Origin: an uncultured Candidatus Saccharibacteria bacterium
Lineage (GTDB): Bacteria; Patescibacteriota; WWE3; UBA101185; UBA10185
Length of the DNA stretch: 40,590 nucleotides
Direction of reading: 5' to 3'
NCBI GenBank assembly: GCA_964532965.1
Contig: CAZHJE010000001.1
Span: forward strand, 10,694-51,283
Shown: one piece after another, positions 1 through 26,037 of the stretch
Layout of the letters: each line of letters starts with the position of its first letter
Position numbering within the stretch: position 1 is the stretch's first letter
Made by a program: the position numbers and the translations under genes
Notes under the pieces: model-generated
Database searches by the model: none
Seen by the model: the letters and a program-made list of their open reading frames with translations, nothing else
Told to the model about the DNA's origin: nothing

Positions 1-875
1 TCTAATGCTTGTTTAAAGTCATCTAGTGATAGTTCTTCTGGTTTTGACTCTGTTTGAATAAGTGGTAAAAATGGCTTACCTACTTGCCAAAAATAATCGA
101 CTTTATCTTTAATCCATGAAACATCTTTGCCGCACATTTTGTGATAAAGCATCGGACAAAATATATCAACATAATTACTAAGCTTCAAAAAATCTTGGCC
201 AAGTATTCTTTTAATTGCAGAACCATATTCTGAATCGTCCCAAGGAATAGCAAGTAACCCTAACACAATTTTATTGTCATGTTTAACCACATCTTTTACG
301 TCGGACACAAATGAAGTAATAGTATTTGTTTTAAATTCGAGCCACTCATGATAATAGCTCCCATCAATATGAAGTGCAGTGTTTTCTAACTGTGTACCTT
401 CTCCGCCAACTCCTTCTATAGGTTCACCAATATAATTTTCAAATAATCTTAAACATCTCGAACAATAGCAAGTGTCTAGTATATATGGCTCTGGTTCATC
501 CCACTTTGTTGGATATCTAATAAAATTTAAAAACATACCATCAATATCTTCTTTAGCTAACTCTTGTATTTTTGCTAATTTTTCTTTTCTAACACCCTCA
601 TGTGTCGGACATACGACATAATACCAATCTCTGTGTGTATCTTTGCCCGAAGAATCGACAGGTACAGCATCTGGATACTTTTTAAGTAAATCATTTCCTG
701 CAAATATAGTTATTTCAACATATATCTTAACGTCTTTCCCTAATATCTCTTTTATTAAAGCTATATTGGCATGTGTTACAAATTTTTCGTTTAAAAACAC
801 CGAAGTTAAATTGAGTGTTTTTGTAGTCTTTAATATCTCTTCATTTACTGTAAGCAAAAAAGTAGATCTCTCCAT
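1..875 (-). CDS. Glycoside-hydrolase-like TIM-barrel protein with GH42-like Cys cluster (3' end runs off window; at least 291 aa visible)
   Basis: Not in the supplied ORF track. Hand translation of the minus strand from ATG 875-873 stays open to position 1: MERSTFLLTVNEEILK...YYVVCPTHEGVRKEK...LDTCYCSRCLRLFENYIGEP...IFCPMLYHKMCG...LIQTESKPEE. A C-x-C-x-x-C followed by an F/Y-rich helix resembles the Zn site of GH42-type barrels. No signal peptide or TM segment. The start lies 2 nt after the ferredoxin stop. Confidence 0.45.
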   Translation of the reverse strand, partial: MERSTFLLTVNEEILKTTKTLNLTSVFLNEKFVTHANIALIKEILGKDVKIYVEITIFAGNDLLKKYPDAVPVDSSGKDTHRDWYYVVCPTHEGVRKEKLAKIQELAKEDIDGMFLNFIRYPTKWDEPEPYILDTCYCSRCLRLFENYIGEPIEGVGGEGTQLENTALHIDGSYYHEWLEFKTNTITSFVSDVKDVVKHDNKIVLGLLAIPWDDSEYGSAIKRILGQDFLKLSNYVDIFCPMLYHKMCGKDVSWIKDKVDYFWQVGKPFLPLIQTESKPEELSLDDFKQAL

Positions 876-877
876 AG

Positions 878-1147
878 TTATTCTTTCTTTTCTGGATATA
901 ATTGATTACCATTTAAATCTTCTATTATAATTGCAGTTGTTGGGCACGATTTCGCACCCTCAATAATTGTTACAGCATCATCCCAATCGCCTTCTTTAAC
1001 ATACGCTATTCCATCGTCATCTAAATCAAAGGTATTTGGTGCTTTAATAATACACGTACTTGCACTTATACATAAATTATTTATAACTTTTATTCTAACT
1101 TTTGATTGTGGATTTGATGTAAACTCATCTTGTCCGTTCTTTGCCAT
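878..1147 (-). CDS. Small single-cluster ferredoxin, 3Fe-4S-type Cys pattern
   Basis: 89 aa with only three Cys, arranged C-I-S-A-S-T-C ... S-C-P (CxxAxxC...CP; Ala sits where a 4Fe-4S ferredoxin has its second Cys). Acidic DLDDDG loop. Strong SD AGGAGG lies 6 nt upstream of ATG 1147, inside the end of the preceding gene. Confidence 0.75.
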   Translation of the reverse strand: MAKNGQDEFTSNPQSKVRIKVINNLCISASTCIIKAPNTFDLDDDGIAYVKEGDWDDAVTIIEGAKSCPTTAIIIEDLNGNQLYPEKKE

Positions 1148-1148
1148 A

Positions 1149-2168
1149 TTAACCTCCTAAATAATTACCTGTTTTTTTATCGATACTTCTTAATTCTAAC
1201 TCGGGTTTTTTTAAAAAGCCAATAATAAAATTTACCCCATATACAACATGTGTTAAAAATATACCAGACAATACCAATGGAAACACTTTTATATCTTTTG
1301 ATTTCACAACAGCCCAAATAGATTCACTTACTAAAAGTACAGCATAAAAAGATAAAATGCTCAAATACAATAAAAACAGTACTAATGATACAAATACAGA
1401 AAACGCACCTAAAGATAAACCTAGTACAAATATCGATGGGACAAAATAATAAGGCAATCTTGATGTTTCTGGAAATATTCTTGCAAATTGCCCCCGATGC
1501 CTACCATATCTTGAAATTTGCTTTAAATGCGGTTTAAACAAGTTTCGTCTGTGATGATAAACAATAGGTTCAGGAGAATATAAAAAAGGCTTGTTATGCT
1601 TTTTTACCAAATCTAAACATAACTTAGTATCCTCACCTGGCCAAAATTCTGTAATAAACCCACCAACAGCATTAAATGCATCCTTTTTAACAAATAAATT
1701 AACTGTAGGATAATCTACAATGTAGCGCTTTTTTTGCGGAATATGCCTATAAGTCTCTCTGTTGCTCGCAAGCATTGATTCGAGTACATACCCAGAGCAT
1801 TTTTCAAGTAATCCTGCATCTTTAGGTGTAATTGCGGGAGCACCTAGTGCATATATATCTTCGCTGCTAAAAATAGCCGCAGCTTCTTTTAACCAATGGG
1901 TAGTAGGATAGGCATCATCATCTAAAAATACAACAATATCTCCTTTAGCTTTTGCTACACCAATATTTCTTTTTTCTCCTGGTCCTTTTGAACCTACAGC
2001 AAAAAGTCTAAATCTAGTGTCATTTTCAAAATCATACACTTGCTCATCATCGGTTAAAATTATTACCTCAAAAAAAGGATAGTTTAATTGTTTTAAATAT
2101 GAAATATTTTCTTTTAAATATGTATTTATGGAACGTACTGGAATTATAATACTAAAAAAGTATTCCAT
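1149..2168 (-). CDS. GT2 family glycosyltransferase with C-terminal transmembrane segments
   Basis: N-terminal FSIIIPVRS, DxD-type FLDDDAYP, WPGEDTKLCLDL. The last ~90 aa are hydrophobic (FVPSIFVLGLSLGAFSVFVSLVLFLLYLSIL...). Confidence 0.8.
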   Translation of the reverse strand: MEYFFSIIIPVRSINTYLKENISYLKQLNYPFFEVIILTDDEQVYDFENDTRFRLFAVGSKGPGEKRNIGVAKAKGDIVVFLDDDAYPTTHWLKEAAAIFSSEDIYALGAPAITPKDAGLLEKCSGYVLESMLASNRETYRHIPQKKRYIVDYPTVNLFVKKDAFNAVGGFITEFWPGEDTKLCLDLVKKHNKPFLYSPEPIVYHHRRNLFKPHLKQISRYGRHRGQFARIFPETSRLPYYFVPSIFVLGLSLGAFSVFVSLVLFLLYLSILSFYAVLLVSESIWAVVKSKDIKVFPLVLSGIFLTHVVYGVNFIIGFLKKPELELRSIDKKTGNYLGG

Positions 2169-2169
2169 A

Positions 2170-2964
2170 TTATTTTCCCGTATTTACTCTCATTTGTAGC
2201 TCTTTATCGTATACCCATTTTCGTTTATTTTCATCTGCATAATAGTTAAGTATTTTAAGTCTATAAAATATTGCAATTGTATCTAGCAGCATATATCTAA
2301 TGTGCCTATCTAAAAAAAGAAATCCCTTAAAACTAGTATTATCATATTCCCAATGTATTTGAACAGGTGCCTCGTAAATCTTAGTAAACCCAAGATATCT
2401 AGCTACAGCAAGTACTTCTATATCAAATGCAAATCTTTTAACAATAAGTCTCGGTAATACAGCTTCTAACACTTTTCGTTTAAATACTTTTAACCCTGTT
2501 TGTGTATCTTTAACCTTAAGCCCAAATAAAATCTTTACAAGCATATAATAACCGAAAAGATAAAGTCTTCTTGAAAACGGGTAATTTAATATTGAGGCGG
2601 GGTGTTTTTTACTACCAATAATTATATCGGCATCGTACCATTCCATGTGTTCAAGTATCATAGAAATACCGTTGGGATTAATATCCATGCCAGCATCAAT
2701 GAATGCTATGTGATCCCCTTTTGCTCGTGCCATACCATATCTTATTGCATATCCCTTTCCACGATTTGTTTCATAACCAATAACAATAACATTATCTTTT
2801 TTTACTTTTTTAGCCTCTTGAAGAGATTTATCTAAATAACCATCGATTACAACAATAATTTCAAAATCCCACCTAGTGTGAGACATAGTATTATAAATAT
2901 TTTCAATATCTTGTTTTATGGTTTTTTCTTGTCTATATGTTGGAACTATTATTGACACTAACAT
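2170..2964 (-). CDS. GT2 glycosyltransferase, DPM/DPG-synthase-like (polyprenyl-phosphate sugar synthase type)
   Basis: MLVSIIVPTY, IIVVIDGYLD, FIDAGMD, DTQTGLKVFKR and FAFDIEVL match the dolichyl/undecaprenyl-phosphate hexose synthase GT-A pattern. The start overlaps the upstream flippase gene by 32 nt. Confidence 0.75.
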   Translation of the reverse strand: MLVSIIVPTYRQEKTIKQDIENIYNTMSHTRWDFEIIVVIDGYLDKSLQEAKKVKKDNVIVIGYETNRGKGYAIRYGMARAKGDHIAFIDAGMDINPNGISMILEHMEWYDADIIIGSKKHPASILNYPFSRRLYLFGYYMLVKILFGLKVKDTQTGLKVFKRKVLEAVLPRLIVKRFAFDIEVLAVARYLGFTKIYEAPVQIHWEYDNTSFKGFLFLDRHIRYMLLDTIAIFYRLKILNYYADENKRKWVYDKELQMRVNTGK

Positions 2965-4216
2965 CTTTAAAATAATATAGTAAAGTTGATAAAAATAAAA
3001 GCATACTAACTAGAATATTAACATTAATTACAGAATTTACACTATCATGAAACGCAGATAAAAGTATAAATTGTGCTATCACACCAAGCAAAAGTAAAAC
3101 AAATACTTTAGTCTTGTTTATTGCCAAAAAATACATAGTCATAAAATATATTAAAATATAAAGTCCAACAAACACTGCAAATTTTGGAAGATACTCGGCT
3201 GCGCTTATAAACTTATCTCCAAATAACACGCTAATAATTAGCGGTGAAAACATATAAAAACAAATGATACCAAGTGCTACGAGTATAATTTGAAATGTAA
3301 CAAACTGCTTAAATCTGGCTAGATACTCTTTATTTGCAGCATATAGTTGCGATATTTGAGGATACATCACCAGTGTTACGGTGCTTGCCCCAAATAAAAA
3401 TACCTTCCCGACAGTAACAATACTAGAATATATTCCAGCAGTATCTGCATCAAAATAATGTTTTACTAAAAGGACATCTACATTATTTAATAAGTTTAAA
3501 CCAACTGTAACCAAAGTGGTTGTAATGCTAAATTTAACAATCATTTTTACTTGGGTTTTCACATCTATAGTCTGTTTGTTGTATGAGGTAAAGTTTTTCT
3601 TTAATAAAAATAAAGATACTACAAAACCTAATATTACTGCCATTGCCATGCCTAAAAACACTCCAGAAATTCCAATACTCACAAATGTTAGCAACATAAT
3701 TGGTAGAATTAGTCTTAAAAAGCTACCAACAACGGTAGAAAATGCAAAGGCCTTAAATCTTAAAAGTCCTTGCAAGTATGAGTACGGTGTAATTGAAAGA
3801 AGTGACACGCCTAACGAAATACCAAAAGCATATATCGCATACATATCAGTAATATTTAAATAATTACCAATAACTTTACTAAAACTCACAACCATACAAA
3901 ATAGTAATATCCCAAAGAGTAATGCATAAGCACTAAGTTTATTAAACAAATGTGTCAAAATATCAAACCTGTTTTGTACCTCTAATTTGGCTACATATTT
4001 GATCAACGACGTAGTTACGGCTGTTGTTGGTATTCCTAAAATTATCATCAAAGATAAAAGGGCATTAAATGTTCCGTAATCAGAAACGCTGAGTGTTCTC
4101 CCAAGATATACTTGAAGAAGATATGAAAAGAAACTACCAATAAAACTACCCAATGATACAATTACAGTACCAACTAATATTTGATTATCTTTTAATGCTA
4201 ATGTTTTTTTAATCAT
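2933..4216 (-). CDS. MOP-superfamily (Wzx-like) oligosaccharide/polysaccharide flippase
   Basis: 427 aa, about 12 hydrophobic spans. The N-terminus GSFIGSFFSYLLQVYLGRTLSVSDYGTFNAL is typical of Polysacc_synt-type flippases. Confidence 0.7.
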   Translation of the reverse strand: MIKKTLALKDNQILVGTVIVSLGSFIGSFFSYLLQVYLGRTLSVSDYGTFNALLSLMIILGIPTTAVTTSLIKYVAKLEVQNRFDILTHLFNKLSAYALLFGILLFCMVVSFSKVIGNYLNITDMYAIYAFGISLGVSLLSITPYSYLQGLLRFKAFAFSTVVGSFLRLILPIMLLTFVSIGISGVFLGMAMAVILGFVVSLFLLKKNFTSYNKQTIDVKTQVKMIVKFSITTTLVTVGLNLLNNVDVLLVKHYFDADTAGIYSSIVTVGKVFLFGASTVTLVMYPQISQLYAANKEYLARFKQFVTFQIILVALGIICFYMFSPLIISVLFGDKFISAAEYLPKFAVFVGLYILIYFMTMYFLAINKTKVFVLLLLGVIAQFILLSAFHDSVNSVINVNILVSMLLFLSTLLYYFKDVSVNNSSNI

Positions 4217-5804
4217 CTACCCTCTTATACACATTGTATAACTTTATGTTTCTCTCATATATACTACCAACATAATCTATTTTAAATCTATCTTCTTTGT
4301 CTGAATCATCTTCCCATACAGGATAAACAAAATATGCAGTGTATTTTGCTTGAGCTGTAATATCTTTTATAGTAGCCCACCCCCCGATTTGTCTAATAAA
4401 CGGATGAAACTGAGTGTAATACTTTTCAGGAAAGCCAACTACCAGTTTTGTGCTAAGTATTGATGTATTTATTAGTGCATCTAAAGACTCGTCTTTAGTA
4501 AATGTTGCATATTCTCCTGAAGCTAACACATCTTTAAAATACGCTTGTATTTGCTTTTGGCCGATACTCCATTTTGGTTCAATTATATATATGCCGTTCT
4601 TCAAGCCCCCAACGAGTGGAGAGTAATATGATAAATAGTCGAAATTTAGATAAAAGTATGTAATAAGCGCTGGAAAAATAAATAAAACCAGTAAAATACT
4701 CTTTTTAAATTTAATTAATGCATATTCAAAAAACATTGCAGAAATTAAAATTAACGAAATTAATGACGGTAAAATATACCTATCTAATTTTTTTGATGGA
4801 ATACTCATTTCTATAAAGTAGGTAGCTGCGTACAAAAATGTATAAAAAGCAAATCTTTTTCTTTTTTCATCTATATTTCTTTTGGCATAAACCAAATAGC
4901 CTAAAGCACCAACTACTATATATAAAGACGATCTAGCCAATAAAACTACTGGATAAAAAGTCAACCCAGGATTTTCGACCAAATTACCAAAATATAACTG
5001 AATGTGCCCTTCTTCTATACCTGTGTCAAATACCCCCCGATAAAGCGTTTGAAACACTAATACAGGATTAACCCATAAGGCAGGCCATAGTAGTAACATA
5101 AAAAAAACTACAAACAATAACCAAAATAGATAGTTTTTAACACTTTCTTTAAGATTCTTTGTATATAAGAAAAACATAAGACCTATAAACGGCAAAAGCA
5201 TTAATGCAGAAGTTTTGGTAAGTATTGCTAAAGTTGTATAAAGTGCAAAAACTATTAGTGTTTTTTTAGTTTTTGAAATACTAACGTAGTAGTATCCCCA
5301 AACAAATGATCCTAACATCAATGTAGAAAGAAGGCCCTCAAGATGTATTACTCTAGTTAAAGCTAAATAAAACGGTTCCAGCAATAATATAAATGAAAAC
5401 ACTAAAGCAAATTTTATAGATATTATTTTTTTTAGTGCAAAAAAAATTCCGCTTGTTGCAAGAGCTAAAAACATAACAATCACTAATTTTTGAAAAAAAT
5501 GAAGTGTAAATACAGTGGTTATATCATTATCAGGAGGTGTAATACCAAGTAAGACTTTGTAATAAAAACTATTCAATTTCACACCAATCGTACCTAACCA
5601 CATTAACGTAACACCTGGGTGGTATCGTTGAAGAGTCTGTACAAAATCTAGATTGAAAATGCCATTGCTAAAGTTGAATATACGGGATTTCCACTTCCAC
5701 ACATCTGTATTAAATATGTCGTGACCCAAATAGGGAAGACGTAACAAAACAAATACCACAAAAACACCAACCTCATATTTAAAATTTGATAAATATTTTT
5801 TCAT
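4209..5804 (-). CDS. Polytopic GT-C-type (ArnT/PMT_2-like) lipid-carrier-dependent glycosyltransferase, paralog A
   Basis: 531 aa, about 12 hydrophobic spans. First-loop NTDVWKW followed by YHPGVTLMW; also LEPFYLALTRVIHLEG and IPSKKLDRYILP. Soluble C-terminal ~110 aa. Clear paralog of 7064..8692. Confidence 0.55.
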   Translation of the reverse strand: MKKYLSNFKYEVGVFVVFVLLRLPYLGHDIFNTDVWKWKSRIFNFSNGIFNLDFVQTLQRYHPGVTLMWLGTIGVKLNSFYYKVLLGITPPDNDITTVFTLHFFQKLVIVMFLALATSGIFFALKKIISIKFALVFSFILLLEPFYLALTRVIHLEGLLSTLMLGSFVWGYYYVSISKTKKTLIVFALYTTLAILTKTSALMLLPFIGLMFFLYTKNLKESVKNYLFWLLFVVFFMLLLWPALWVNPVLVFQTLYRGVFDTGIEEGHIQLYFGNLVENPGLTFYPVVLLARSSLYIVVGALGYLVYAKRNIDEKRKRFAFYTFLYAATYFIEMSIPSKKLDRYILPSLISLILISAMFFEYALIKFKKSILLVLFIFPALITYFYLNFDYLSYYSPLVGGLKNGIYIIEPKWSIGQKQIQAYFKDVLASGEYATFTKDESLDALINTSILSTKLVVGFPEKYYTQFHPFIRQIGGWATIKDITAQAKYTAYFVYPVWEDDSDKEDRFKIDYVGSIYERNIKLYNVYKRVDD

Positions 5805-5814
5805 AGCACAAACT

Positions 5815-7095
5815 TTAGTTTACTCCCCATCTTTCCAAAGTGTTTTGCACAATTGCCAAGATTGGTAATAAAAAATAAGCCACAAAAAACACATACCATA
5901 ATCTTTGGTTATTTATCTTTTTTAAATAGTCAGCTACTTTGTACAAAAAAAACCCACTGATTATAGAAACGTATGGATAAGTTATAAAATAATAATGTGA
6001 TCTACTCTTTTCAAACCCAGCAATATAATAAAAAAAGAAAAGCGACGGAACTAACAATAACAACAAAGCATATATTTCATGCACATTTACAACTCTATCA
6101 AAGAACTTTCTTTTTAAAAAATAAAACGATAAAAAGAGTGTAGCTAAAATGAGTACTATTAAATATGTGTAGAGAGCCGTGTATCCAAAATCATCAGCAA
6201 GTTTTGTAAAAAACAGTGTAAAAAATTTAGACATATGCGCTGCAAGAGGTACTTCTCCTACATTTGTGAATTGCCAAAACGCGCCCTGTGGTCCATCTGT
6301 TCTAGAAAAAGTTACATAATCAAAAAAAGCAAAAGGGGTACCTATTAAAAAACCTAATAGAGCAAATACGGTAGCAAGTAATGGTTTTAGTGTAGTCCCA
6401 TATGCAAACAATTTTTCTTTAGCTTTATATACATAGCAAAAATGAGCAAAAGCTACACCTATAGCTATGAGTCCGCCATTGTATTTTGTAGATGCCGCAA
6501 AACCAGTAAATAGTCCAGCCAATAAATATGCTTTTATAGAGTTATTTTTAAAAATAAGTACAGAAAAATATAAAGCACAACTCAAAAAAAATACCATAGG
6601 CACATCCGGCAATGAATATTGCGAATGCCAAATATGATATGGTAAAAGTGTAAATGTCATCGCAGAAAGTAGTGCCACTTTCTCGTTAAAAAGTCTTTGA
6701 GCCGAATAGTATATGGGTATTAATGTCATTGCACCAAAAAGCGAAGAGAATAACCTAGTTAAATAATAAAAGATCAAAGTATCATCCCAAATGAGAGGAA
6801 ACATGTTTATTAGACTTGCTTTTAAGTTCAATGCCTCAAGAAGCGTTCTAACTTTTGCAAATACCATATATAAAAAATAATTTAGATAAATGTACAAATG
6901 TGGCCAATCAAAATGTTTTGGATTGTTGTAAAACCTTACTTCTAACGCGCTTCTTACTATTGTTGGTTCATCTGGGTGCAATATTAACGGAAATGAGTGT
7001 AGATCCCCAATTATTCTAAGTATAAGACTCACTACAACTAGAAAAAACAGTGTTTTATTTGCTTTACTCAGCTTGTGTGCCTGAAGTTTTAACAT
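5815..7095 (-). CDS. Polytopic GT-C-type (GT39/PMT_2-like) glycosyltransferase
   Basis: 426 aa. HPDEPTIV (D-E motif) in the first predicted outside loop, FDWPHLYIY, and a multi-span body. SD GGAGGA lies 4 nt upstream of ATG 7095. The start overlaps the upstream gene by 32 nt. Confidence 0.6.
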   Translation of the reverse strand: MLKLQAHKLSKANKTLFFLVVVSLILRIIGDLHSFPLILHPDEPTIVRSALEVRFYNNPKHFDWPHLYIYLNYFLYMVFAKVRTLLEALNLKASLINMFPLIWDDTLIFYYLTRLFSSLFGAMTLIPIYYSAQRLFNEKVALLSAMTFTLLPYHIWHSQYSLPDVPMVFFLSCALYFSVLIFKNNSIKAYLLAGLFTGFAASTKYNGGLIAIGVAFAHFCYVYKAKEKLFAYGTTLKPLLATVFALLGFLIGTPFAFFDYVTFSRTDGPQGAFWQFTNVGEVPLAAHMSKFFTLFFTKLADDFGYTALYTYLIVLILATLFLSFYFLKRKFFDRVVNVHEIYALLLLLVPSLFFFYYIAGFEKSRSHYYFITYPYVSIISGFFLYKVADYLKKINNQRLWYVFFVAYFLLPILAIVQNTLERWGVN

Positions 7096-13224: not shown

Positions 13225-13227
13225 ATG

Positions 13228-13920: not shown

Positions 13921-13950
13921 AAGTGTAATAATAACTAAAAAAGGCTATAA

Positions 13951-16717: not shown

Positions 16718-17997
16718 TTGATTACTTCCTTAATAACCTGTAAATATTTATCAAGCATAGTATTTAGTGTAAAATTTTTCATAGCATGATCAATTGCACT
16801 TTTACTCATTTTTGTAATTAAAGCTTTATCAGTTACAAACATACTTATTTTATCAGATAAATCACTAATACTATTTGGTGGTATTATATACCCTGTAATA
16901 CTTTCTATAACAGCATCTTTATTTCCGCCGCTATCAGTAGCTATAATTGGTAATCCAGAAAACATTGCTTCAACAAGTACCATAGGAAAGCCTTCAACAC
17001 GTATTGATGGTAAAACAAACACATCACATTTATCTAACATCTTTGTAACCTCTTCAGGTTTAACATTCCCATAAAATATTATATTTTTATCAAGTGAGGT
17101 GTTTTGAACATATTCTTTTGCATTTTCCAAATCTTCGCCACCACCAACAATATGAAGTTTAATAGTTGGGTTATTTAACTGTATTAGCGCGTCAAGCAAA
17201 ACAAAAATACCTTTAGATCTAATAACTTTTCCAACATAAATTAGATTTAAGTCATTCTCGCTTACTGGTCTCTTGGTACCATGATTAAATCTCTTTGGAT
17301 CTACGCCATTAAAAATAACTTCAATATGGTCTTCGGGTGAGTATGTTTCGTTAATAATCGCCTGTTTTACATAGGTAGAAACTGCAATGACTTTATTTGA
17401 GTGTAATATAAATTCTCTTTGTCGAGTGAAAAAGTTTTTAATAACAAATGCTGTATCTCTAAGTAAACTTAATATAAAACCAAATGATAAAAACTGTTTT
17501 ACCGACGTTATGCTTTTTAGTCTAGTGCGGTATTCACTAAGAATTGTCCCGTGAGATATTGATATCACTTTAACCCCAAGCTTTTTTTTATTTCTAATAA
17601 TACCAATACCACTTGCACTTTGACATAAAACAATATCAAATGGTGTTGTTTGATGAATTTGTGTAAATGCTAAAACAGATTTTTCTATCCAGTCTTCTTT
17701 TCCTTTTTTCGAAAAGATGTTTTTTGTTTTAATACTAGGAAAAACTTTCTCTAATATATATGCAAAGTTATATTCAATAGCTTGAAAAAATATACCTAAT
17801 CTATAAACGGAATTAACAAATACATACTTAACACCATTTTCTTCATATAACTCTTTATCAAAAGTTTCTTTTGGCGAAAAAACAACAACTGTATGTCCTC
17901 TGCTAACAAGTCCTTCAGAAAGTAGCTTAGTTTGTGTCTCAAGCCCGCCATACCCTTGATGAAAGGTTGTACGCTTAACAAATATTGCAATATGCAT
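16714..17997 (-). CDS. GT4 family (GT-B fold) glycosyltransferase
   Basis: 427 aa. GYGGLETQ near the N-terminus. FVLPSIRVEGFPMVLVEAMFSGLPIIATDSGG contains a canonical E-x7-E. Confidence 0.85.
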   Translation of the reverse strand: MHIAIFVKRTTFHQGYGGLETQTKLLSEGLVSRGHTVVVFSPKETFDKELYEENGVKYVFVNSVYRLGIFFQAIEYNFAYILEKVFPSIKTKNIFSKKGKEDWIEKSVLAFTQIHQTTPFDIVLCQSASGIGIIRNKKKLGVKVISISHGTILSEYRTRLKSITSVKQFLSFGFILSLLRDTAFVIKNFFTRQREFILHSNKVIAVSTYVKQAIINETYSPEDHIEVIFNGVDPKRFNHGTKRPVSENDLNLIYVGKVIRSKGIFVLLDALIQLNNPTIKLHIVGGGEDLENAKEYVQNTSLDKNIIFYGNVKPEEVTKMLDKCDVFVLPSIRVEGFPMVLVEAMFSGLPIIATDSGGNKDAVIESITGYIIPPNSISDLSDKISMFVTDKALITKMSKSAIDHAMKNFTLNTMLDKYLQVIKEVIK

Positions 17998-18029
17998 GCA
18001 TATAGTTTAACAAATATACCTGCAAAGTG

Positions 18030-18809
18030 TTAGGATTTTAACGTATCTAATAATTTTTGCGCTTCGGATTTTCGTGCTTTTAAAATACCTTCGGGATCAG
18101 GCGTTTGGAGCACTGCAGCTAAATATATTTCTGCGAGTATTGGTTTGCCTGTATCGGCAAATACTTTGCCAAGCGCAAGAGATATACCAGAAGACCACAC
18201 TCTTAGTTTTATTGCACCTTGATCTTGTGCTTCCATTTCAGCATCATAGCCCTCATAAAGACATCTTTGGGCTTCGAGTAATACGTCTAAAGCCTCGTCA
18301 GTTCTTTTTTGTTCATGCAATATATTTGCTTTTATCGAAAGTGCCCAAGCACGGTGTGCTTTTGACCCGGGGAGATCTTCTAACCCTTTATCAACTGCTT
18401 CTAAGGCATATTTTAACTGCATAGTCTTTTCTTTTGGAGAATATACCCCTGCGTACTTTAAATGAAGTGATGCTTTATGCACATATTGGGTTGCAAGTGG
18501 ACCCTTTGGCAAGTCGTTTTCTTTACCGAGCCTTATCGCCTCTTCTATACATTCACTAGCTTGATTTATATATAGGGTTTTTTTGTCGCCATCCTCACAA
18601 CTATCAGCAAGTAGCGTTAATGTTATTTTTTTATGCCCAAGTACATCCATTTGCCCTCTTGGATTAGCATTTTCTATATCCCAAGCAATTATTGCGTTAA
18701 ATTGTGCTAATGCTTCTTCTAACTTCCCTTGCTCTCGTAAAACAACTGCTTGATTTTTAGCCGTTTCTCTTTGATCTTTAGATTCAAATTTAATAGCTTT
18801 ATCTGACAT
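18030..18809 (-). CDS. Hypothetical soluble alpha-helical repeat (TPR-like) protein
   Basis: 259 aa, acidic and Ala/Leu/Glu-rich, with no hydrophobic spans. Repeated helix-pair-like segments (GKLEEALAQFNAII..., TDEALDVLLEAQRCL...). No family recognised. Visibly higher G+C than flanking genes. Confidence 0.6.
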   Translation of the reverse strand: MSDKAIKFESKDQRETAKNQAVVLREQGKLEEALAQFNAIIAWDIENANPRGQMDVLGHKKITLTLLADSCEDGDKKTLYINQASECIEEAIRLGKENDLPKGPLATQYVHKASLHLKYAGVYSPKEKTMQLKYALEAVDKGLEDLPGSKAHRAWALSIKANILHEQKRTDEALDVLLEAQRCLYEGYDAEMEAQDQGAIKLRVWSSGISLALGKVFADTGKPILAEIYLAAVLQTPDPEGILKARKSEAQKLLDTLKS

Positions 18810-18817
18810 ATATTTTA

Positions 18818-20116
18818 TTATAGCATTAGTTTTTGTAAGTTAGCTACATTTTCATTTGCATTAAATAACTCTTTTGCTTTTGCATAAGCGTTATTGCCAA
18901 GTAGCAGTGCTTTGTTTTTATCGTTTCTTAGACCTATAATAGCATTTGCTATAGCAACGACATCTTTTTGAGGAATTACTATACCTGTTTTATCATTTTG
19001 TATAAGTTCAGAGATACTACCAGCGTCCGTTGTAATAATAGGCAATTTAGCGAATGCGGCTTCTATAACAGTATTAGGTATTCCATCTACATCCCCTGTA
19101 TCTGTTGTTATAGCAGGAAGCACAAATATATCTGCCTTTAGATAATATGGTATTACTAGATCATTTGGTAATCCGTTACCATTACCATCGATGTAAAATG
19201 TGTTTTCGAGCCTTAATTCTCTTATTTTATCTAAAAATAATTGGTACAATGGGCCACCACCAACAACATGCACCTCATGCTTTACACCCTGCTCTAAAAG
19301 TAATTTTGATGCCTCAAGCATATAAATGATACCTTTTTTTTCAACAAGTCTTGTACCGCCTAAAAAAATATATATTTTATCATTATTTAATAAGCCAAAA
19401 TCTCTATTCAAACCCTTAAATAATTTTTGTTCATCGATGCCATGATATATAAAGTATATTTTATCTTTATAATGAGCATCAGTCTTACTCACTAAAAACT
19501 CATAAACATTCTTGTTACAAACTGTAATAAATTTTGCATGTTTAATTTTTGCTTGTATCAAAGATGCATCAACAAGAACATCTTTTGCATGTGCATTTAT
19601 ACTAAACGGTATATCAAGCAGCATTGCAGATACCATAAAAATATTCGATACGTCAGAAAAGAAATGGATGTGAATTTCATCCACAGCATGTTTTTCAATT
19701 AGCTTTGCATATGCGATTCCTTTTAAAAAATGTATTAATCTAGCATTTGTAAAACTGCCAAGTACACTTTTTTTACTCCTTTCATTTGCTGTTAAATAAA
19801 ATGGATTAGGGAAGTATGGGAAATAATCTTTACCAAGAAATAATTTATGTATTTTTAATATTTTTAATGGATGTAACAAAACATATAAAAATGAAGCTTT
19901 AACACAAGTTAAAAAATCAAGCCGAGCGTATATTGTTTTTTTTAGTGTCTTCTCTGAGGTAACCCCATTGCCTTTATTTAAAGAAAATATAACTATATCT
20001 AATACATCCATTTCAATTAACTTAGTTACATCTCTTTCAATAAATGTTTCGGATATTGACGGAAAAGTCGGTATTACTACTAATACTTTCTTTTTCATTG
20101 ATACTTTTTTACTCAT
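18818..20116 (-). CDS. GT4 family (GT-B fold) glycosyltransferase, WcaL-like
   Basis: KKVLVVIPTFPS, EKKGIIYMLEA, VLPAITTDTGDVDGIPNTVIEAAFAKLPIITTDAGS. The start is uncertain: the ORF-track start 20143 is TTG, ATG 20116 gives an ATGAGTAA overlap with the ugd stop, and ATG 20098 is also possible. Confidence 0.75.
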   Translation of the reverse strand: MSKKVSMKKKVLVVIPTFPSISETFIERDVTKLIEMDVLDIVIFSLNKGNGVTSEKTLKKTIYARLDFLTCVKASFLYVLLHPLKILKIHKLFLGKDYFPYFPNPFYLTANERSKKSVLGSFTNARLIHFLKGIAYAKLIEKHAVDEIHIHFFSDVSNIFMVSAMLLDIPFSINAHAKDVLVDASLIQAKIKHAKFITVCNKNVYEFLVSKTDAHYKDKIYFIYHGIDEQKLFKGLNRDFGLLNNDKIYIFLGGTRLVEKKGIIYMLEASKLLLEQGVKHEVHVVGGGPLYQLFLDKIRELRLENTFYIDGNGNGLPNDLVIPYYLKADIFVLPAITTDTGDVDGIPNTVIEAAFAKLPIITTDAGSISELIQNDKTGIVIPQKDVVAIANAIIGLRNDKNKALLLGNNAYAKAKELFNANENVANLQKLML

Positions 20117-21422
20117 GTTTTTTGCCAACAGAATAATACTCAAATCCTAGGCGTTTCATTTCTTTGCTGTCGTATATATTTTTACCGTCAAATATTATCG
20201 GTTCGGTTAAATTTTCTTTAATAACCGCTAAATCAAGGTTTTTAAATACACCCCACTCAGTTAAAACACATAGTGCATCTGCGCCTTTTGCTGCATCATA
20301 TGCATCTTTTGCATAATACATATTTGTATCATTTAATTCATTCTTAGCATTTTCCATCGCATGTGAATCATATGTTCTAATCTTTGCACCCATACCACGT
20401 AGCTGTTTGATAACTTTAATACCAACAGATTCTCTAATGTCATCTGTGTTGTCCTTAAAAGCAAGCCCTAAACAAGCAAATGTTTTACCACTAAGATTTT
20501 TTCCATACCTTCGAGTTATCTTTTTTATAAAGTGATGCTTTTGGAGTTCGTTTGCTTCGATCACCGCACGTAAAATTTTGAAGTCATAGGCATAGTCGAA
20601 CGCGGTTTTATATAATGCCGAAACATCCTTAGGAAAACAACTACCACCATAACCAATACCCGCATTCAAGAACTTAGGACCAATTCTTGAATCAAGCCCC
20701 ATACCTTTTGCTACTACTCTAACATCTGCGCCAGTTTTTTCGCATAATTGGCCTATTTCATTAATAAAGGATATTTTTGTTGCTAAAAATGAATTTGATG
20801 CATATTTAATCATCTCCGCCGAACGCAAATCACACATAACAAGCGGGGCGTCCACATGCGCGTAAAATTCTTCCATAACTTTCTTTGCACGGTCACTATT
20901 TACACCTACAATTGTTCTATCTGTATTTTTCATATCTTCAACCGAATACCCTTCGCGTAGAAATTCGGGATTTGAGGCAACATCAAAAGGTACTTCGCCT
21001 TTTAAATTTTCTTTGATAATTTTAAAGACTTGCTCATTTGTACCAACAGGAACAGTGCTTTTAGTAACAATAACCTTATAATCTGTTAAATATTTTGCTA
21101 TTTCTTTTGCTACTGCCCATACAGCAGATAAATCAGCTTTACCATCGTCATCTTGTGGAGTACCTACACATATAAATACTATTTCCGCATCTTTCATCCC
21201 ATGTGCAAGATTTGTAGTGAATTTTAATCTACCCTCTTTAATATTATTTAACACAATTTCATCAAGCCCAGGTTCATAAATGGGCATAACACCTTCTTCT
21301 ATCATTTTTATTTTCTTTTCATCTATATCTACTCCAACAACATTATTTCCCCAATCAGCAAATATTGCTGCTCCAACTAACCCTACATACCCTGTACCTA
21401 TTACACAGATATTTTTTTTCAT
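20109..21422 (-). CDS. ugd: UDP-glucose 6-dehydrogenase
   Basis: 437 aa. Rossmann motif VIGTGYVG, NPEFLREG, and catalytic-Cys motif GYGGSCFPKD. Full-length match to the UDP-glucose/GDP-mannose dehydrogenase pattern. Confidence 0.9.
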   Translation of the reverse strand: MKKNICVIGTGYVGLVGAAIFADWGNNVVGVDIDEKKIKMIEEGVMPIYEPGLDEIVLNNIKEGRLKFTTNLAHGMKDAEIVFICVGTPQDDDGKADLSAVWAVAKEIAKYLTDYKVIVTKSTVPVGTNEQVFKIIKENLKGEVPFDVASNPEFLREGYSVEDMKNTDRTIVGVNSDRAKKVMEEFYAHVDAPLVMCDLRSAEMIKYASNSFLATKISFINEIGQLCEKTGADVRVVAKGMGLDSRIGPKFLNAGIGYGGSCFPKDVSALYKTAFDYAYDFKILRAVIEANELQKHHFIKKITRRYGKNLSGKTFACLGLAFKDNTDDIRESVGIKVIKQLRGMGAKIRTYDSHAMENAKNELNDTNMYYAKDAYDAAKGADALCVLTEWGVFKNLDLAVIKENLTEPIIFDGKNIYDSKEMKRLGFEYYSVGKKHE

Positions 21423-22180
21423 TTATATATTCCTTTCCAGTCGTTTACTCTGACTGTTAAAACATCTTTAAACATTTTGATAGAATCCTTTACAACATTA
21501 AGTCGTGTTGTAGGAACATGCGTCCAAACTACTGGTAGTTCTTTTATTCTGTAATTTCTTTTCTTTGCAAGATATAAAACCTCAACATCAAACGCGCCTA
21601 AATAGGCATCTTGAATCTCAGATGCATCTTGCCCATAAATGCTTAACATTTTGAATACATTTTTTGCTACATCTTTTTTAAAAAGTTTAAATCCACATTG
21701 AGAATCCTTTATTCCAGGAAGCGCTAAAAGTTGAACTAAAATGTTAAAACCCCTACCAATAAAATGGCGATAAAATGGTTCTTTTATTCTTACTGCCCCT
21801 GCACCTTCTCGTGATGCAATAACAATGTCGTACTCATGTTCGGTAATCCAAAAAGCTAGTTTTTTTAGCTCAGATATCGGAGCTGATAAATCTGCATCGC
21901 ACATATATATCAAATCACCTTGTGCAGCCATGATACCTGTCCATACTGTTGGACCTTTTCCTTTGTGTTTATTTCTAATTATTTTAACTTCTGGGTTTGT
22001 TTTTGAATATGTTTCTACTAGAGCCGCCGTGTTATCGGAACTACCGTCATCAACAACAATAATTTCAAATGATGTAGCATAACTGCGCATAAAATTCACA
22101 ATTTGAGTTAAAGAACTAGTTATTTTATCAGATTCGTTATAAGCAGGTATCACAATTGAATATGCAATGCTTTCGCTCAT
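21419..22180 (-). CDS. GT2 glycosyltransferase, ALG5/DPG-synthase-like polyprenyl-phosphate glycosyltransferase
   Basis: YSIVIPAYNES, IIVVDDGSSDNT, GKGPTVWTG, MCDADLSAP, DSQCGFKLFKK, FDVEVLYLA. I place the start at ATG 22180, which forms a classic ATGA overlap with the upstream stop, rather than 22195. Confidence 0.8.
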   Translation of the reverse strand: MSESIAYSIVIPAYNESDKITSSLTQIVNFMRSYATSFEIIVVDDGSSDNTAALVETYSKTNPEVKIIRNKHKGKGPTVWTGIMAAQGDLIYMCDADLSAPISELKKLAFWITEHEYDIVIASREGAGAVRIKEPFYRHFIGRGFNILVQLLALPGIKDSQCGFKLFKKDVAKNVFKMLSIYGQDASEIQDAYLGAFDVEVLYLAKKRNYRIKELPVVWTHVPTTRLNVVKDSIKMFKDVLTVRVNDWKGIYK

Positions 22181-23316
22181 TTTTTCTTTTTCCAAATAAT
22201 TTTACTGTACACTGTAAAATTCCATACTAGCCCGATCATTATACCAATAAGAAAGGCAATATTGCTAACTATAAAAGTGTCCCCAAATGCGGTGACCGCA
22301 TGGTTGATTAAATAGCTTCTAAATACAATAGGTATATATGAACTAAAACTATAACCAAAATAGTTTAAAGCCATTTTTCTTTTTTTTGTATGCTTACGAT
22401 CACGAAAAGACCAAAAATTATTTAATAAATATGTTGCTAAAAGTGCAAAAAACCCGGATATTAAACTAGAAGACTTACTTACAGAAAAATAAAATAACGA
22501 AACATTAAATAAACGTAACGCATTAAACAACAAAGTATCTACTAAAAAACCTAAACTTCCTGTCACTAAAAATTTAAAAAAATTTTTATTACTTTTAAGA
22601 CGTAACATGATAACAACTCTCATAGAATCTAGCATGTTGTTGTTCTCCATTTTTGATAATCCCCTGTCTCTTACCCCAAAAGCAATAGGAATTTCTGTGA
22701 TTTTAGCCTTAGCCTTATGCATTTTAAAAAGAAGATCGATTTTATATGCAAATCCTTTTGATAAAATATTATCTAAATCTATTGAGTCTACAAACCCCTT
22801 AACCCGGGAGGCCTTAAACCCAGAAGTAAAATCGTTAACATTAAATATACCAAGTACAAATTTTGAAAATATATTACCGCCAATGCTTAAAAACTTGCGA
22901 TAAAACTCCCATTCTTGAGGAATAGAACCCCCTCGAGTAAATCTAGACCCAATAACGTAATCATAACCTTCATCAATCTTTTGTATTAACCTTTTAACAT
23001 CTTTAGGGTCGTGCTGAAAATCGGCATCCATCTCTACTAATACATCCGCTGCAAGTGTGTTCATCGCATACCTAAAGCCATAAACATAAGCGGCACCAAG
23101 TCCGTTTTTTTGTTTTTCTAAAAGAAGTTTTACAAAAGTATATGTTTTAGATAATTCTGCAACTATATCTTTGGTATTGTCGGGAGAATTACCGTCAACA
23201 ACTAAAACTTCTATTGTGTGATTTGGAATTAATTTAAACTCTTCTGCTAAAACAGGTATTAATTTTTTAATATTCTCCGCCTCATTATAAGTCGGTATTA
23301 CAATAACAATTTTCAT
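22177..23316 (-). CDS. Fusion protein: DPM1/Ppm1-like polyprenyl-phosphate sugar synthase (GT2) plus C-terminal GtrA-like 4-TM domain
   Basis: N-terminal half: IVIPTYNEAENI, VLVVDGNSPDNT, GLGAAYVYGF, EMDADFQHDP. C-terminal ~130 aa: FLVTGSLGFLVDTLLFN...NNFWSFRDR...WNFTVYSKIIW, matching the GtrA family pattern. Confidence 0.8.
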   Translation of the reverse strand: MKIVIVIPTYNEAENIKKLIPVLAEEFKLIPNHTIEVLVVDGNSPDNTKDIVAELSKTYTFVKLLLEKQKNGLGAAYVYGFRYAMNTLAADVLVEMDADFQHDPKDVKRLIQKIDEGYDYVIGSRFTRGGSIPQEWEFYRKFLSIGGNIFSKFVLGIFNVNDFTSGFKASRVKGFVDSIDLDNILSKGFAYKIDLLFKMHKAKAKITEIPIAFGVRDRGLSKMENNNMLDSMRVVIMLRLKSNKNFFKFLVTGSLGFLVDTLLFNALRLFNVSLFYFSVSKSSSLISGFFALLATYLLNNFWSFRDRKHTKKRKMALNYFGYSFSSYIPIVFRSYLINHAVTAFGDTFIVSNIAFLIGIMIGLVWNFTVYSKIIWKKKK

Positions 23317-23327
23317 ATATTCGTTTA

Positions 23328-23585
23328 CTACAATTGAAGGGCAACGGTTGCAATTACAAAAACTAACAATGAAAATAGTAAGTACTCCAAAACAATATGC
23401 TTTGTGAGCCTGCCTTCAATTGCGTGATGCATTATACCCCAGCAAAAGTAAAAAAGCGATGCTAACGCAAGTACAATTTGAATGTAAAAATTATTATATT
23501 CAAAAAAAACTAAAGCGATTACAAAAATAAACAACCCTAATACCAAAGTCAAATATTGAAAGATGTGAGAGTTTTTGTGCATCAT
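23328..23585 (-). CDS. Small 3-TM membrane protein, unknown function
   Basis: 85 aa with three hydrophobic spans and a conserved-looking WGIMHHAIEGR loop. 4-nt overlap with the upstream CAP-domain gene. Confidence 0.5.
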   Translation of the reverse strand: MMHKNSHIFQYLTLVLGLFIFVIALVFFEYNNFYIQIVLALASLFYFCWGIMHHAIEGRLTKHIVLEYLLFSLLVFVIATVALQL

Positions 23586-24511
23586 ATTATTTTTCCTGGA
23601 CTAATTACTAGCCAAACACCAACAAGCACCAATACTAAAAACGTAATATGTGCTATTGTGTGCCCTGTAAACTTCGCTATGCTTTTCTTTCGTGTATACC
23701 AAATATCCAACCCCAATAACAACGAAATGAATAATGTAAATATTAAAATGAGATGCGCTGAAACATCTGGGATGTTTACGTATACATGCGTATCTTCAGG
23801 CTGTTGATTTTGCTTTACCTCACCTACAGGCTGAAGATTAAATTGTGGTTGTGTTTCGGGAACACTTTCTAATATCGTGGTTGTTCCTTGTACATCGTTT
23901 GATTCTATACTTCCAACAACTGTGCCAGACCTTGGACGCCCAAACATTTGCACTACAAGTGTCGTTTTATATCCATCAAGCTCTCCATTAACAACAGCAA
24001 AACCCACATCGTCATAATTTGCACTTAAAAGATTATCTCTATGCGAAGTAGATTTGTACCACGCCTGAATTACTCCCACTGAGGTATCAAAATTCTTAGC
24101 TAGGTTCTCGCCAGCATATTCGTAATCATATTTCGATGTCAAAATAAAATGCCACGGCTTCACACCATCTGGCGAGACATGCGCCCAATAATTGTTGTTA
24201 AACATATCTTGCGCTTTAAGTTCTGCTGCATGAGATAAATTAGAATTTAGCCTTAACGGAGACAGCCCGTTTTGTACTCTAATATCGTTGGTCTCATTAA
24301 GCAAATCAACCACTGAAATATTCGACGCGTACCCTAATACTCCAGGAGAAATTTTGTTGATTGACTTTAATGAAATAAAAAAGACCAGCGTAACAAAAAT
24401 ATATGAAAAAAGTGCGAAATGACTAAGTAGTGTAGCCCTTTGTTGTGTAAAAGGGTGAGGTACAAAATGATGTATGATCGAAAACTTTGTTTCTTTAGTA
24501 CTTTCAGACAT
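23582..24511 (-). CDS. Membrane-tethered CAP/SCP (YkwD-like) domain protein
   Basis: I place the start at ATG 24511 (MSESTKETKF...), which removes an opposite-strand overlap with the kinase gene. One N-terminal TM, then a CAP core (AAELKAQDMFNNNYWAHVSPDG, YAGENLAKNF, WYKSTSHRDNLL, VGFAVV), then two C-terminal TM spans. Confidence 0.7.
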   Translation of the reverse strand: MSESTKETKFSIIHHFVPHPFTQQRATLLSHFALFSYIFVTLVFFISLKSINKISPGVLGYASNISVVDLLNETNDIRVQNGLSPLRLNSNLSHAAELKAQDMFNNNYWAHVSPDGVKPWHFILTSKYDYEYAGENLAKNFDTSVGVIQAWYKSTSHRDNLLSANYDDVGFAVVNGELDGYKTTLVVQMFGRPRSGTVVGSIESNDVQGTTTILESVPETQPQFNLQPVGEVKQNQQPEDTHVYVNIPDVSAHLILIFTLFISLLLGLDIWYTRKKSIAKFTGHTIAHITFLVLVLVGVWLVISPGKII

Positions 24512-24554
24512 TAAGAAAATTATAGTGGTTATTTTATATGGTGTATAGTGTAAA

Positions 24555-25670: not shown

Positions 25671-25671
25671 A

Positions 25672-25695
25672 TTGGCGGGTACTAAGCCCCGCCAA
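25672..25695. terminator. GC-rich hairpin between convergent kinase and hup genes (probable bidirectional terminator)
   Basis: TTGGCGGG-tactaagc-CCCGCCAA gives a perfect 8-bp stem with an 8-nt loop. On the minus strand it is followed by the T-rich TTTAATTCACTTTTTT. The plus-strand tail is not T-rich. Confidence 0.6.
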
Positions 25696-25720
25696 CAACT
25701 CATTCAAATTAAGATATTCA

Positions 25721-25993: not shown

Positions 25994-26037
25994 TTTTAAA
26001 ACACCCCCTTTCAAAAAAACTGCCTGACTCCAATTTA

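Follow-up and report, generated by a model that had tools for sequence, protein, structure and literature searches.

The stretch of DNA analysed here (the window) comprises 40,590 nucleotides (nt) of contig CAZHJE010000001.1 from assembly GCA_964532965.1, deposited under the title of an uncultured Candidatus Saccharibacteria bacterium. Its left part is taken up by a run of 22 consecutive genes on the minus strand, which we named V (start codon ATG at 24511) down to A, the last one running off the window at base 1. The run encodes glycosyltransferases (GTs) of several families together with candidate translocators, and a preliminary description made from the sequence alone had read it as a locus for extracytoplasmic glycosylation that depends on lipid carriers. 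Analysis of the open reading frames (ORFs) and their junctions agreed with its account of the run, including the maximal gap of 32 nt and the predominance of overlapping junctions: with the most plausible starts the distances between genes range from -32 to +32 nt, 12 of the 21 junctions overlap, and the widest gaps are located between P and O (32 nt) and between M and L (30 nt). ATGA overlaps at 9605, 16714, 21419 and 22177 and a TAATG at 11083 were found exactly as described. In a sister strain (Logan ERR4450749, 140,707-bp contig), which is 97–99% identical, gene A encodes 327 amino acids (aa), and a convergent SDR gene comes after it, which places the end of the run about 110 nt past the window edge; as a whole the run comprises 22 genes over ~24.6 kb. 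Since almost all genes of the 40.6-kb window are located on the minus strand and the GC skew is negative throughout, co-directionality is not special and carries little weight; the weight rests on the tight packing and on the conserved synteny.

All genes of the run described in the following lie on the minus strand. Four of them encode small proteins of family GT2, which had been claimed to resemble DPM1 and GtrB. In T (22177..23316) the GT2 domain is fused to a GtrA/DPMS (dolichol-phosphate mannose synthase) transmembrane (TM) domain (Pfam GT2 101 bits, GtrA_DPMS_TM 44.5 bits). The other three are soluble: S (21419..22180; DPMS/ArnC-like, Pfam GT2 112 bits), L (13228..13920; DPMS/AglJ-like, 122 bits), located between two genes for GT-C glycosyltransferases, and D (2170..2964; DPMS-like, 84.6 bits). 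For all four the best solved homolog is the Dol-P-Man synthase of Pyrococcus furiosus, 5mlz, with E-values of 1.7e-39 for T, 3.6e-20 for S, 6.7e-18 for L and 6.7e-13 for D. T aligns to 5mlz over its full length (residues 1–370) including the four-helix TM domain, S, L and D via the catalytic domain. ArnC and GtrB are matched by all four as well. They come next after 5mlz for T and L; for S chondroitin synthase intervenes (5mlz, ArnC, chondroitin synthase, GtrB), and for D several other GT2s rank above them. The best NCBIfam matches, all under cut-off, are AglJ, PgfS, ArnC and PpgS; AglJ is the best match of L (114 bits) and is also matched by T, and ArnC is the best match of S.

The DxD motif takes the form DAD in T, S and L. 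In D and 13 of its 14 orthologs D[AS]GM[DE] replaces it, the fourteenth having DDSGR. A hydropathy scan detected no TM helix in S, L and D, and T has the GtrA_DPMS_TM domain with its four TM helices. Polyprenyl-phosphate-sugar synthases without TM helices exist, for example PpgS and human DPM1. Judged by their sequences, T, S and L are well-supported candidates for polyprenyl-phosphate-sugar synthases, so that this part of the earlier claim held. D may be a fourth such synthase, an assignment that is tentative and the weakest of the set because of its non-canonical motif.

The one extra GT2 that had been listed, C (1149..2168), is a generic, membrane-anchored enzyme with C-terminal TM helices (Pfam GT2 and Glyco_trans_2_3; TM segments at about residues 240–320). 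We considered C as a further GtrB-like synthase and rejected this assignment, its best PDB matches being TarS (5tze) and GalT1. In a WWE3 relative a single 606-aa protein with two GT2 domains combines the orthologs of D and C (loci L002/L005, 20322–22142; window 1149–2964), a fusion that suggests a joint action of the two at the membrane.

Five polytopic proteins were identified as GT-Cs, in agreement with the number given in the preliminary description. M (13951..15558) matches Pfam PMT_2 with 38 bits (cut-off 26.1), H (7064..8692) matches PMT with 26.2 bits (cut-off 22.7), and G (5815..7095; 426 aa) matches both PMT_2 (53 bits) and PMT (51 bits). G, H and M thus exceed the Pfam gathering scores for PMT or PMT_2, and F (4209..5804) and K (11083..13224) do not; their assignment as GT-Cs is supported by predicted structures. 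Hydropathy scanning gave the expected ~7–13 TM helices for the polytopic proteins, and the AlphaFold2 models of K and F show 11–13 long helices. Four of the five had been called ArnT/PMT-like. Their GT-C status was borne out, their identity as bona fide ArnT or GT39 enzymes was not; they belong to the PMT_2 superfamily. The family of M is related to that of G (hhalign probability 94.8%), and a profile search with M against the PDB gave no matches. H matches ArnT (5ezm) weakly.

F is the fourth protein of the supposed ArnT/PMT-like group and has no significant Pfam match of its own, its only Pfam match being EpsG with an E-value of 0.0096. It is nevertheless paralogous to H (hhalign E 6e-71), and PF13231 or PF02366 is found in the majority of the F orthologs. 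The AlphaFold2 model of F is of high confidence (pLDDT 89.9, pTM 0.91), and in a Foldseek search against the PDB its 33 best matches were all GT-Cs, among them ALG9, ArnT, STT3, ALG12, Pmt4, PglB, AglB, AftA, AftD and EmbA, with best TM-scores of 0.45–0.55. An identity of F as a Wzy/EpsG polymerase was rejected: the EpsG match is sub-threshold (15.5 versus 30.1 bits), and the significant Foldseek matches are all GT-C with no Wzy among them.

K is a DUF2079 protein (Pfam 96.5 bits) which in the AlphaFold2 model (pLDDT 76.9, pTM 0.71) combines a GT-C fold with a C-terminal extracytoplasmic beta-sandwich. Its 14 best Foldseek matches are all GT-Cs (STT3, AglB, DPY19, ArnT, PglB; E 4e-6 to 7e-4, TM-score 0.33–0.44), and the possibility that the polytopic proteins might adopt another fold was not borne out for either model. 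A sequence link between K and the PMT_2 group was not detectable (hhalign against G, 0.6% probability) and a profile search of the PDB found nothing, so that the GT-C fold of K became visible only through structure prediction. The beta-sandwich shows weak likeness to NPC2/ML domains and to the glycan-binding domain of Wzt. In ortholog alignments all five GT-C families have invariant acidic residues in the first external loop: D36 and D41 in K, D34 in F (with D29 nearly invariant), D42 and E43 in G, D41 in H, and E34, D37 and E57 in M. K additionally has D62 and D77 as invariant residues.

The candidates for translocation across the membrane are four, as had been stated, and all four were recovered by Pfam and NCBIfam. 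J (9605..11083; Polysacc_synt_3 74 bits, Polysacc_synt 48 bits) and E (2933..4216; Polysacc_synt 57.5 bits, Polysacc_synt_3 45.6 bits) are flippase candidates of the MOP superfamily and resemble Wzx. I (8667..9608), the UPF0104 protein of the earlier account, is an LPG_synthase_TM protein resembling the flippase domain of MprF (Pfam 139 bits) and also reaches the TIGR00374 flippase-like domain with 62.8 bits (cut-off 43.2). The fourth candidate is the GtrA domain of T. Three cytoplasmic GT4s and a ugd gene had likewise been listed, and the Pfam matches agree: Q (18818..20116; Glycos_transf_1 84 bits, EpsE-like under cut-off), O (16714..17997; Glycos_transf_1 140 bits and Glyco_transf_4) and N (15527..16717; Glycos_transf_1 80 bits and Glyco_transf_4) are GT4s, and R (20109..21422) is a UDP-glucose 6-dehydrogenase (Ugd) with three UDPG_MGDP_dh domains (224, 131 and 111 bits), which from its sequence would supply UDP-glucuronate. 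In the Pfam listing H spans 7064–8707, S 21419–22195 and Q 18818–20143.

The organism has a tiny genome and belongs to candidate division WWE3 (Katanobacteria) of the candidate phyla radiation (CPR), which fits the CPR-like host that had been suspected. Homologs of K number in the hundreds; the best 120 are 52–98% identical, and the named ones come from candidate division WWE3 or Patescibacteria. Many metagenome-assembled genomes titled "uncultured Candidatus Saccharibacteria bacterium" (L005–L083) combine a WWE3-type K (45–62% identity) with the complete gene order of WWE3 and are probably WWE3 genomes under a wrong label.

We scanned one genome per GTDB species and obtained 79 loci, including those of the complete RAAC2_WWE3_1 chromosome and the curated genome RIFOXYC1_FULL_40_10. 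Gene order was compared with a tblastn-based script in 44 typical species-level WWE3 loci with full 10-kb flanks around K. In 39 of these the order V-U-T-S-R-Q-O-N-M-L-K-J-I-H-G-F-E-D-C-B is strictly collinear, at amino-acid identities of 35–70%. The remaining five differ by the labelling of paralogs or by one extra gene. In all 44 loci the cluster genes are located on the strand of K, the sole inversion being a P-like insertion in L009. A scattering of these genes in related genomes, the outcome that would have spoken against a functional unit, was thus not observed. All loci (100%) contain K, J and H; Q, O, N, G and F occur in 98%, and T, S and L in 91–93%. Some sub-lineages do without I (present in 75%) or R (82%): about a quarter of the WWE3 loci, among them that of the complete RAAC2, lack I, and ~18% lack R. 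The flanking genes vary, with EamA/AdoMet_dc genes in L002 and a histidine kinase gene in the window, and the block itself is intact. In WWE3 Bin_101 (864-kb contig; L004/L014, 13613–17318) genes for a nucleoside triphosphatase (NTPase), prolyl-tRNA synthetase and a radical SAM protein are inserted between the orthologs of J and I, after which the cluster resumes.

These data bear on the question of whether the run is a unit at all. Independent modules, for instance for a glycolipid, for the decoration of a wall polymer and for protein O-glycosylation, could simply be packed together in a streamlined, strand-biased genome and keep their synteny due to low recombination. The strand bias of the window, the presence of genes unrelated to glycosylation within the run (those for the ferredoxin B, the TPR protein P and the CAP protein V), the tolerance of inserted genes in L004 and the dispensability of I, R and P in some lineages would all fit such an arrangement. 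We nevertheless consider it very unlikely, as a collinearity of ~20 genes persists in 39 of 44 species in spite of the low sequence identity, the overlaps at 12 junctions are of the translationally coupled kind, the flanks change between genomes while the block stays intact, and D and C are even fused in some of them.

A divergent WWE3 clade, in which K is only ~29% identical (L076, L079, L080), keeps the core M-L-K-J-G-F and has up to seven GT-C genes. Only one DPMS-like GT2 was seen within 10 kb in this clade, and it probably has two K paralogs (P0269, P0284) on the same contig. When we searched with the divergent K, WWE3 proteins were recovered down to 258 bits, followed by a sharp drop to 124 bits or less. 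From this abrupt drop we conclude that the K clade is WWE3-specific. The few named matches with lower scores are proteins of Chloroflexota and were aligned only over the membrane part. In Chloroflexota (L085, L086; 4174–9080) the DUF2079 gene is located between genes for a Wzz-like protein and a ParA/AAA_31 ATPase, which is possibly BY-kinase-like. Upstream is a gene for a DUF5656 protein, and the neighbourhood also codes for a Wzy_C protein, a GT4 and nucleotide-sugar enzymes. U (23328..23585), a small membrane protein of 85 aa with about three TM helices, matches DUF5656 under cut-off (Pfam E 3e-4). A profile of U orthologs aligned with the Chloroflexota DUF5656 protein adjoining DUF2079 with a hhalign probability of 61% (E 8e-5), U being similar to the C-terminal part of DUF5656. 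Both the Chloroflexota context and the likeness of U to DUF5656 therefore link DUF2079 to polymer assembly. An association of DUF5656 with DUF2079 seems to recur across phyla.

Several proteins usually found in loci for surface glycans are absent. Among the proteins of the window we found no phosphoglycosyl transferase (PGT), WecA/MraY-type transferase, Wzy_C, Wzz, O-antigen ligase, ABC exporter or STT3 using Pfam and NCBIfam, and a motif search for the WWDxG of STT3-type enzymes was negative as well, which agrees with the absences noted in the preliminary description. PGT, Wzy, Wzz, LCP and O-antigen ligase were equally not found within 10 kb on either side of K in the 44 genomes, nor did the window or the flanks of the 44 loci contain a backbone pathway for O-antigen, teichoic acid or capsule (PGT, Wzy, ABC transporter, TagF-like).

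This pattern has to be considered when asking whether the locus belongs to a conventional heteropolysaccharide of the Wzx/Wzy or synthase type, with the genes for the priming transferase, polymerase and ligase lying outside it. The GT4s and C would then make a repeat unit on undecaprenyl diphosphate, E and J would act as Wzx, and the sets of GT2s and GT-Cs would decorate the product after polymerisation in the manner of Gtr, CsbB/YfhO or the streptococcal SccN/SccM. The locus does have two MOP proteins resembling Wzx as well as several cytoplasmic GTs, three-component decoration systems are widespread and sometimes occur in multiples (PMC11127046), and in the sister strain more genes for GT2, GT4, methyltransferase and radical SAM proteins lie just downstream. 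Compared with Wzx/Wzy loci, however, only the Wzx-like MOPs are represented; the initiating PGT, Wzy and Wzz/PCP were not found in the window, and the wider search around K in the 44 genomes gave the same picture. In addition the five GT-Cs are more numerous than the cytoplasmic GTs, and decoration loci are normally strain-variable whereas the WWE3 block is invariant across a class-level lineage. We therefore regard a conventional heteropolysaccharide as rather improbable.

Instead we propose that in WWE3 the locus acts as an assembly line for a glycoconjugate of the envelope, and one that defines the lineage. Its product would be structural, probably a membrane-anchored or wall-associated glycopolymer such as a lipoglycan or a polymer similar to secondary wall polymers, and would be built largely by GT-Cs. 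We assign this specific interpretation a probability of about 55%, and are more confident about the general logic of lipid carriers and GT-Cs. A structural product is favoured because content and order of the locus are invariant class-wide, unlike those of the hypervariable O-antigen and capsule loci. Construction largely by GT-Cs is favoured because five GT-Cs outnumber four cytoplasmic GTs. The genes for M (GT-C), L (GT2), K (GT-C) and J (MOP) are adjacent to each other, an arrangement kept even in the divergent WWE3 clade. The weak likeness of the beta-sandwich in the K model to the glycan-binding domain of Wzt may be taken as a further, weak hint at a polymer.

According to this proposal, the GT4s N, O and Q together with C and Ugd would assemble a core or backbone on a lipid at the inner side of the membrane. 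In parallel T, S, L and perhaps D would load single sugars onto polyprenyl monophosphate at the cytoplasmic face. Translocation of the lipid-linked intermediates would fall to J and E (MOP), to the MprF-like I and to the GtrA domain of T, the synthases presumably being paired with flippases and GT-Cs. MOP/MATE proteins have been implicated in the flipping of polyprenyl-phosphate-linked monosaccharides, namely AglR in Haloferax (PMC3871713) and a MATE-family flippase in Citrobacter (PMC11127046). On the outer face M, K, H, G and F would transfer sugars to the growing glycan as their acceptor; we infer that these GT-Cs use polyprenyl-phosphate-linked sugar donors there.

The same logic of a synthase, a translocator candidate and a GT-C is found in GtrA/GtrB/Gtr*, CsbB-GtcA-YfhO, ArnC-ArnEF-ArnT and the Citrobacter set of synthase, MATE flippase and GT136 enzyme (PMC11127046). 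The Citrobacter GT136 enzyme carries a carbohydrate-binding module (CBM) comparable to the extra extracytoplasmic beta-sandwich of K, and CBM-bearing GT-Cs acting on polymers are known (PMC11127046). In comparison to the Gtr-type systems the WWE3 block is multiplied, with three to four synthases, four translocator candidates and five GT-Cs in one co-directional block. It is also invariant class-wide, whereas Gtr systems are strain-variable or phage-borne, and a separately encoded pathway for an acceptor polymer is not visible in the window or in the 44 flanks. Furthermore three of the WWE3 synthases are devoid of the C-terminal TM helices of GtrB and ArnC.

The mycobacterial and corynebacterial pathways for phosphatidylinositol (PI) mannosides (PIM), lipomannan (LM) and lipoarabinomannan (LAM) and for arabinogalactan (PimA/PimB, Ppm1, PimE/MptA/MptB/MptC/Emb/Aft) follow the same logic: a lipid-anchored core made by GT4s is flipped and then extended outside by many GT-Cs, with polyprenyl-phosphate-linked sugars as donors. 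LM/LAM and arabinogalactan would also resemble the WWE3 product as proposed here, being conserved structural glycopolymers of the envelope. The proteins themselves differ, as the WWE3 GT-Cs belong to PMT_2 and DUF2079 and not to the GT87, MptA and Emb families, and the model of F matches PimE, AftB and EmbA only weakly (E 0.06–1.4). No equivalog of PI synthase or PimA was found in the window, and the mycobacterial genes are scattered whereas the WWE3 genes form one block.

AglR of the archaeal Agl pathway is a MOP-family protein and AglS is a PMT_2-like GT-C. In an alternative reading the locus would encode a machinery for protein glycosylation, archaeal Agl-like and/or PMT-like, which would modify surface proteins such as pilins or an S-layer. 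L or T, in the role of AglJ, would start the glycan on polyprenyl monophosphate, the GT4s would extend it with the help of UDP-glucuronate, and a MOP protein would flip it. Transfer would be carried out either by K as an STT3-independent oligosaccharyltransferase or by G as an O-mannosyltransferase, and the other GT-Cs would add terminal sugars in the way of AglS. The Agl cluster of Haloferax volcanii (AglJ, AglG, AglI, AglE, AglM, AglD, AglR, AglS, AglB) starts with a DPMS-like GT2 on polyprenyl monophosphate and needs no PGT (PMC3871713), so that an initiation of this kind would explain the missing PGT in the WWE3 locus. The Agl cluster brings together the GT2s AglJ and AglD acting on Dol-P, AglM as Ugd, AglR, which is implicated in flipping, and AglS, a Dol-P-Man mannosyltransferase acting outside (PMC3871713); counterparts of all these parts are clustered in the WWE3 locus. 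AglJ is moreover the best NCBIfam match of L and is matched by T. This match lies far under the equivalog cut-off of 325 bits, however, and the host is a bacterium. STT3/AglB is missing from the WWE3 locus, which has five GT-Cs where the Agl pathway has one plus the oligosaccharyltransferase.

As for the transferring enzyme, STT3 and AglB are the structures that the model of K matches best, STT3 with TM-scores of only 0.33–0.42, and ArnT is matched too. In the model K resembles STT3 only in the general GT-C fold. The motif WW[DN]xG is absent from F, G, H, K and M, no protein of the window has the WWDxG motif or an STT3 Pfam domain, and a target protein is not evident in the locus. Residues 366–376 of K contain an invariant GTSEIxNHR in an external loop predicted with low confidence between two TM helices. 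This loop recalls the catalytic SVSE/TIXE loop (external loop 5, EL5) of STT3 and PglB, which we take as a lead only. G is similar to the GT39 protein O-mannosyltransferases (Pmt1/2, Rv1002c): it passes Pfam PMT, its ortholog profile matches yeast Pmt1 (6p25_A) with an E-value of 3.7e-16, and the Asp-Glu pair of these enzymes in loop 1, D42-E43 (HPDEP), is invariant in 20 orthologs. On the other hand G has only 426 aa, the alignment covers only ~150 residues, and the PMT_4TMC and MIR domains were not detected by Pfam. Finally, the Chloroflexota DUF2079 genes are found in polysaccharide-type loci with Wzz and a ParA/AAA_31 ATPase. Altogether we consider protein glycosylation unlikely, though worth keeping in mind.

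A further variant goes beyond the known systems. Here an essential, lineage-specific glycoconjugate of WWE3 would be built entirely on polyprenyl monophosphate, started by a DPMS-like GT2 with no PGT, and K would represent a new kind of GT-C that acts as STT3-independent oligosaccharyltransferase or as polymerase/ligase onto protein or wall, its GTSEIxNHR loop playing the part of SVSE/TIXE. We regard this variant as speculative and quite unlikely.

Several points weigh against the assembly line for a structural glycopolymer that we favour. The window contains no initiating enzyme and no gene that defines the acceptor: equivalogs of PI or diacylglycerol-glycolipid synthases, an LCP ligase and a polymerase were all not found in it. 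A pairing of GT2 and GT-C is clear only for M-L-K, three of the candidate synthases (S, L and D) have no TM helices, and D in addition is without the canonical DxD. The genes could serve more than one product, and the Asp-Glu motif that G shares with protein O-mannosyltransferases may allow a protein acceptor. None of the glycosylation proteins reaches an NCBIfam equivalog cut-off, and sugar specificities therefore cannot be named.

CPR/Patescibacteria are thought to live attached to the surface of other microbes, and their envelope glycans are almost uncharted. The WWE3 locus has to our reading of the literature no previous description, and we found no known pathway or paper that maps onto it, as the preliminary description had supposed; nothing relevant was found on DUF2079/PF09852 or on GT-Cs of Patescibacteria. 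In related reports, WWE3 genomes are noted in general terms to contain unusually many glycosyltransferases (PMC3812714), a PIM-like pathway is proposed for one Saccharibacterium (PMC6031116), and multiple copies of Dol-P-Man synthase are mentioned for Peribacteria (PMC4736985). All parts fall into families known already, the three-component scheme is an established one (PMC11127046), and nothing in the locus so far goes beyond known chemistry. New are the multiplicity in one block, the class-wide invariance in WWE3, the lack of a priming or polymerising partner nearby and, from the models, support for the view that a DUF2079 clade specific to WWE3, with an extra beta-sandwich, has a GT-C fold. 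With ~20 genes over ~24.6 kb in a class-wide order the locus would account for much of the glycosyltransferase richness of WWE3. Its invariance is the opposite of what is seen in O-antigen and capsule loci and points to a core structural component with a status like that of lipoarabinomannan or teichoic acids. The block can serve as a genetic marker for WWE3 and as a target list for heterologous biochemistry, with three clear candidates for polyprenyl-phosphate-sugar synthases and five GT-Cs including the uncharacterised DUF2079 clade. It also offers a hypothesis for host attachment or envelope integrity in these uncultured bacteria.

The remaining genes of the run are not glycosyltransferases. 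V (23582..24511), the first gene, encodes a membrane-anchored CAP/YkwD-domain protein (Pfam CAP 66 bits; YkwD/DalA-like in NCBIfam, under cut-off), in which the CAP domain is extracellular and lies between one N-terminal and two C-terminal TM helices; V is syntenic in WWE3. P (18030..18809) encodes a TPR-repeat protein with sub-threshold TPR matches only. It is a lineage-specific insertion, seen elsewhere among the loci scanned only in a near-identical strain (L001, same strand) and in L009 (opposite strand). B (878..1147) is a small ferredoxin with a single 4Fe-4S cluster (Pfam Fer4_13 32 bits), which is syntenic in WWE3 loci wherever the flank reaches its position. The last gene, A (1..875, with 291 of 327 aa in the window), encodes a TIM-barrel protein similar to glycoside hydrolases (Pfam DUF4015, GHL6 and GH42, all under cut-off).

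A gap of 43 nt (24512–24554) separates V from a divergent gene for a PAS-HisKA-HATPase kinase and contains a sigma-70-like promoter candidate on the minus strand (24519..24547, TATACA-17-TATAAT). The candidate is a consensus match only (10 of 12 positions) and is joint-best on the minus strand within 20001–27000. Its -10 element ends 8 nt before the ATG of V, which would imply a nearly leaderless mRNA; an alternative start of V, TTG at 24571, is located upstream. The run showed no excess of promoter-like and terminator-like sites over shuffled sequence, and the intergenic gaps contained none, so that an operon model is neither proven nor broken by them. The run would nevertheless be transcribed as one unit in our interpretation. 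Rfam families and tRNAs were not found in the window.

Outside the run, two ORFs have no significant Pfam match, namely 31899–33104 on the plus strand (401 aa), which is among only two plus-strand genes in the window, and 39602–40180 on the minus strand (192 aa). In the sister strain a second group of glycan-related genes follows the convergent SDR gene past the left window edge (L087, 15921–21596). It consists of two small ORFs and genes for a B12-binding radical SAM enzyme, a GT2, a methyltransferase and a GT4.

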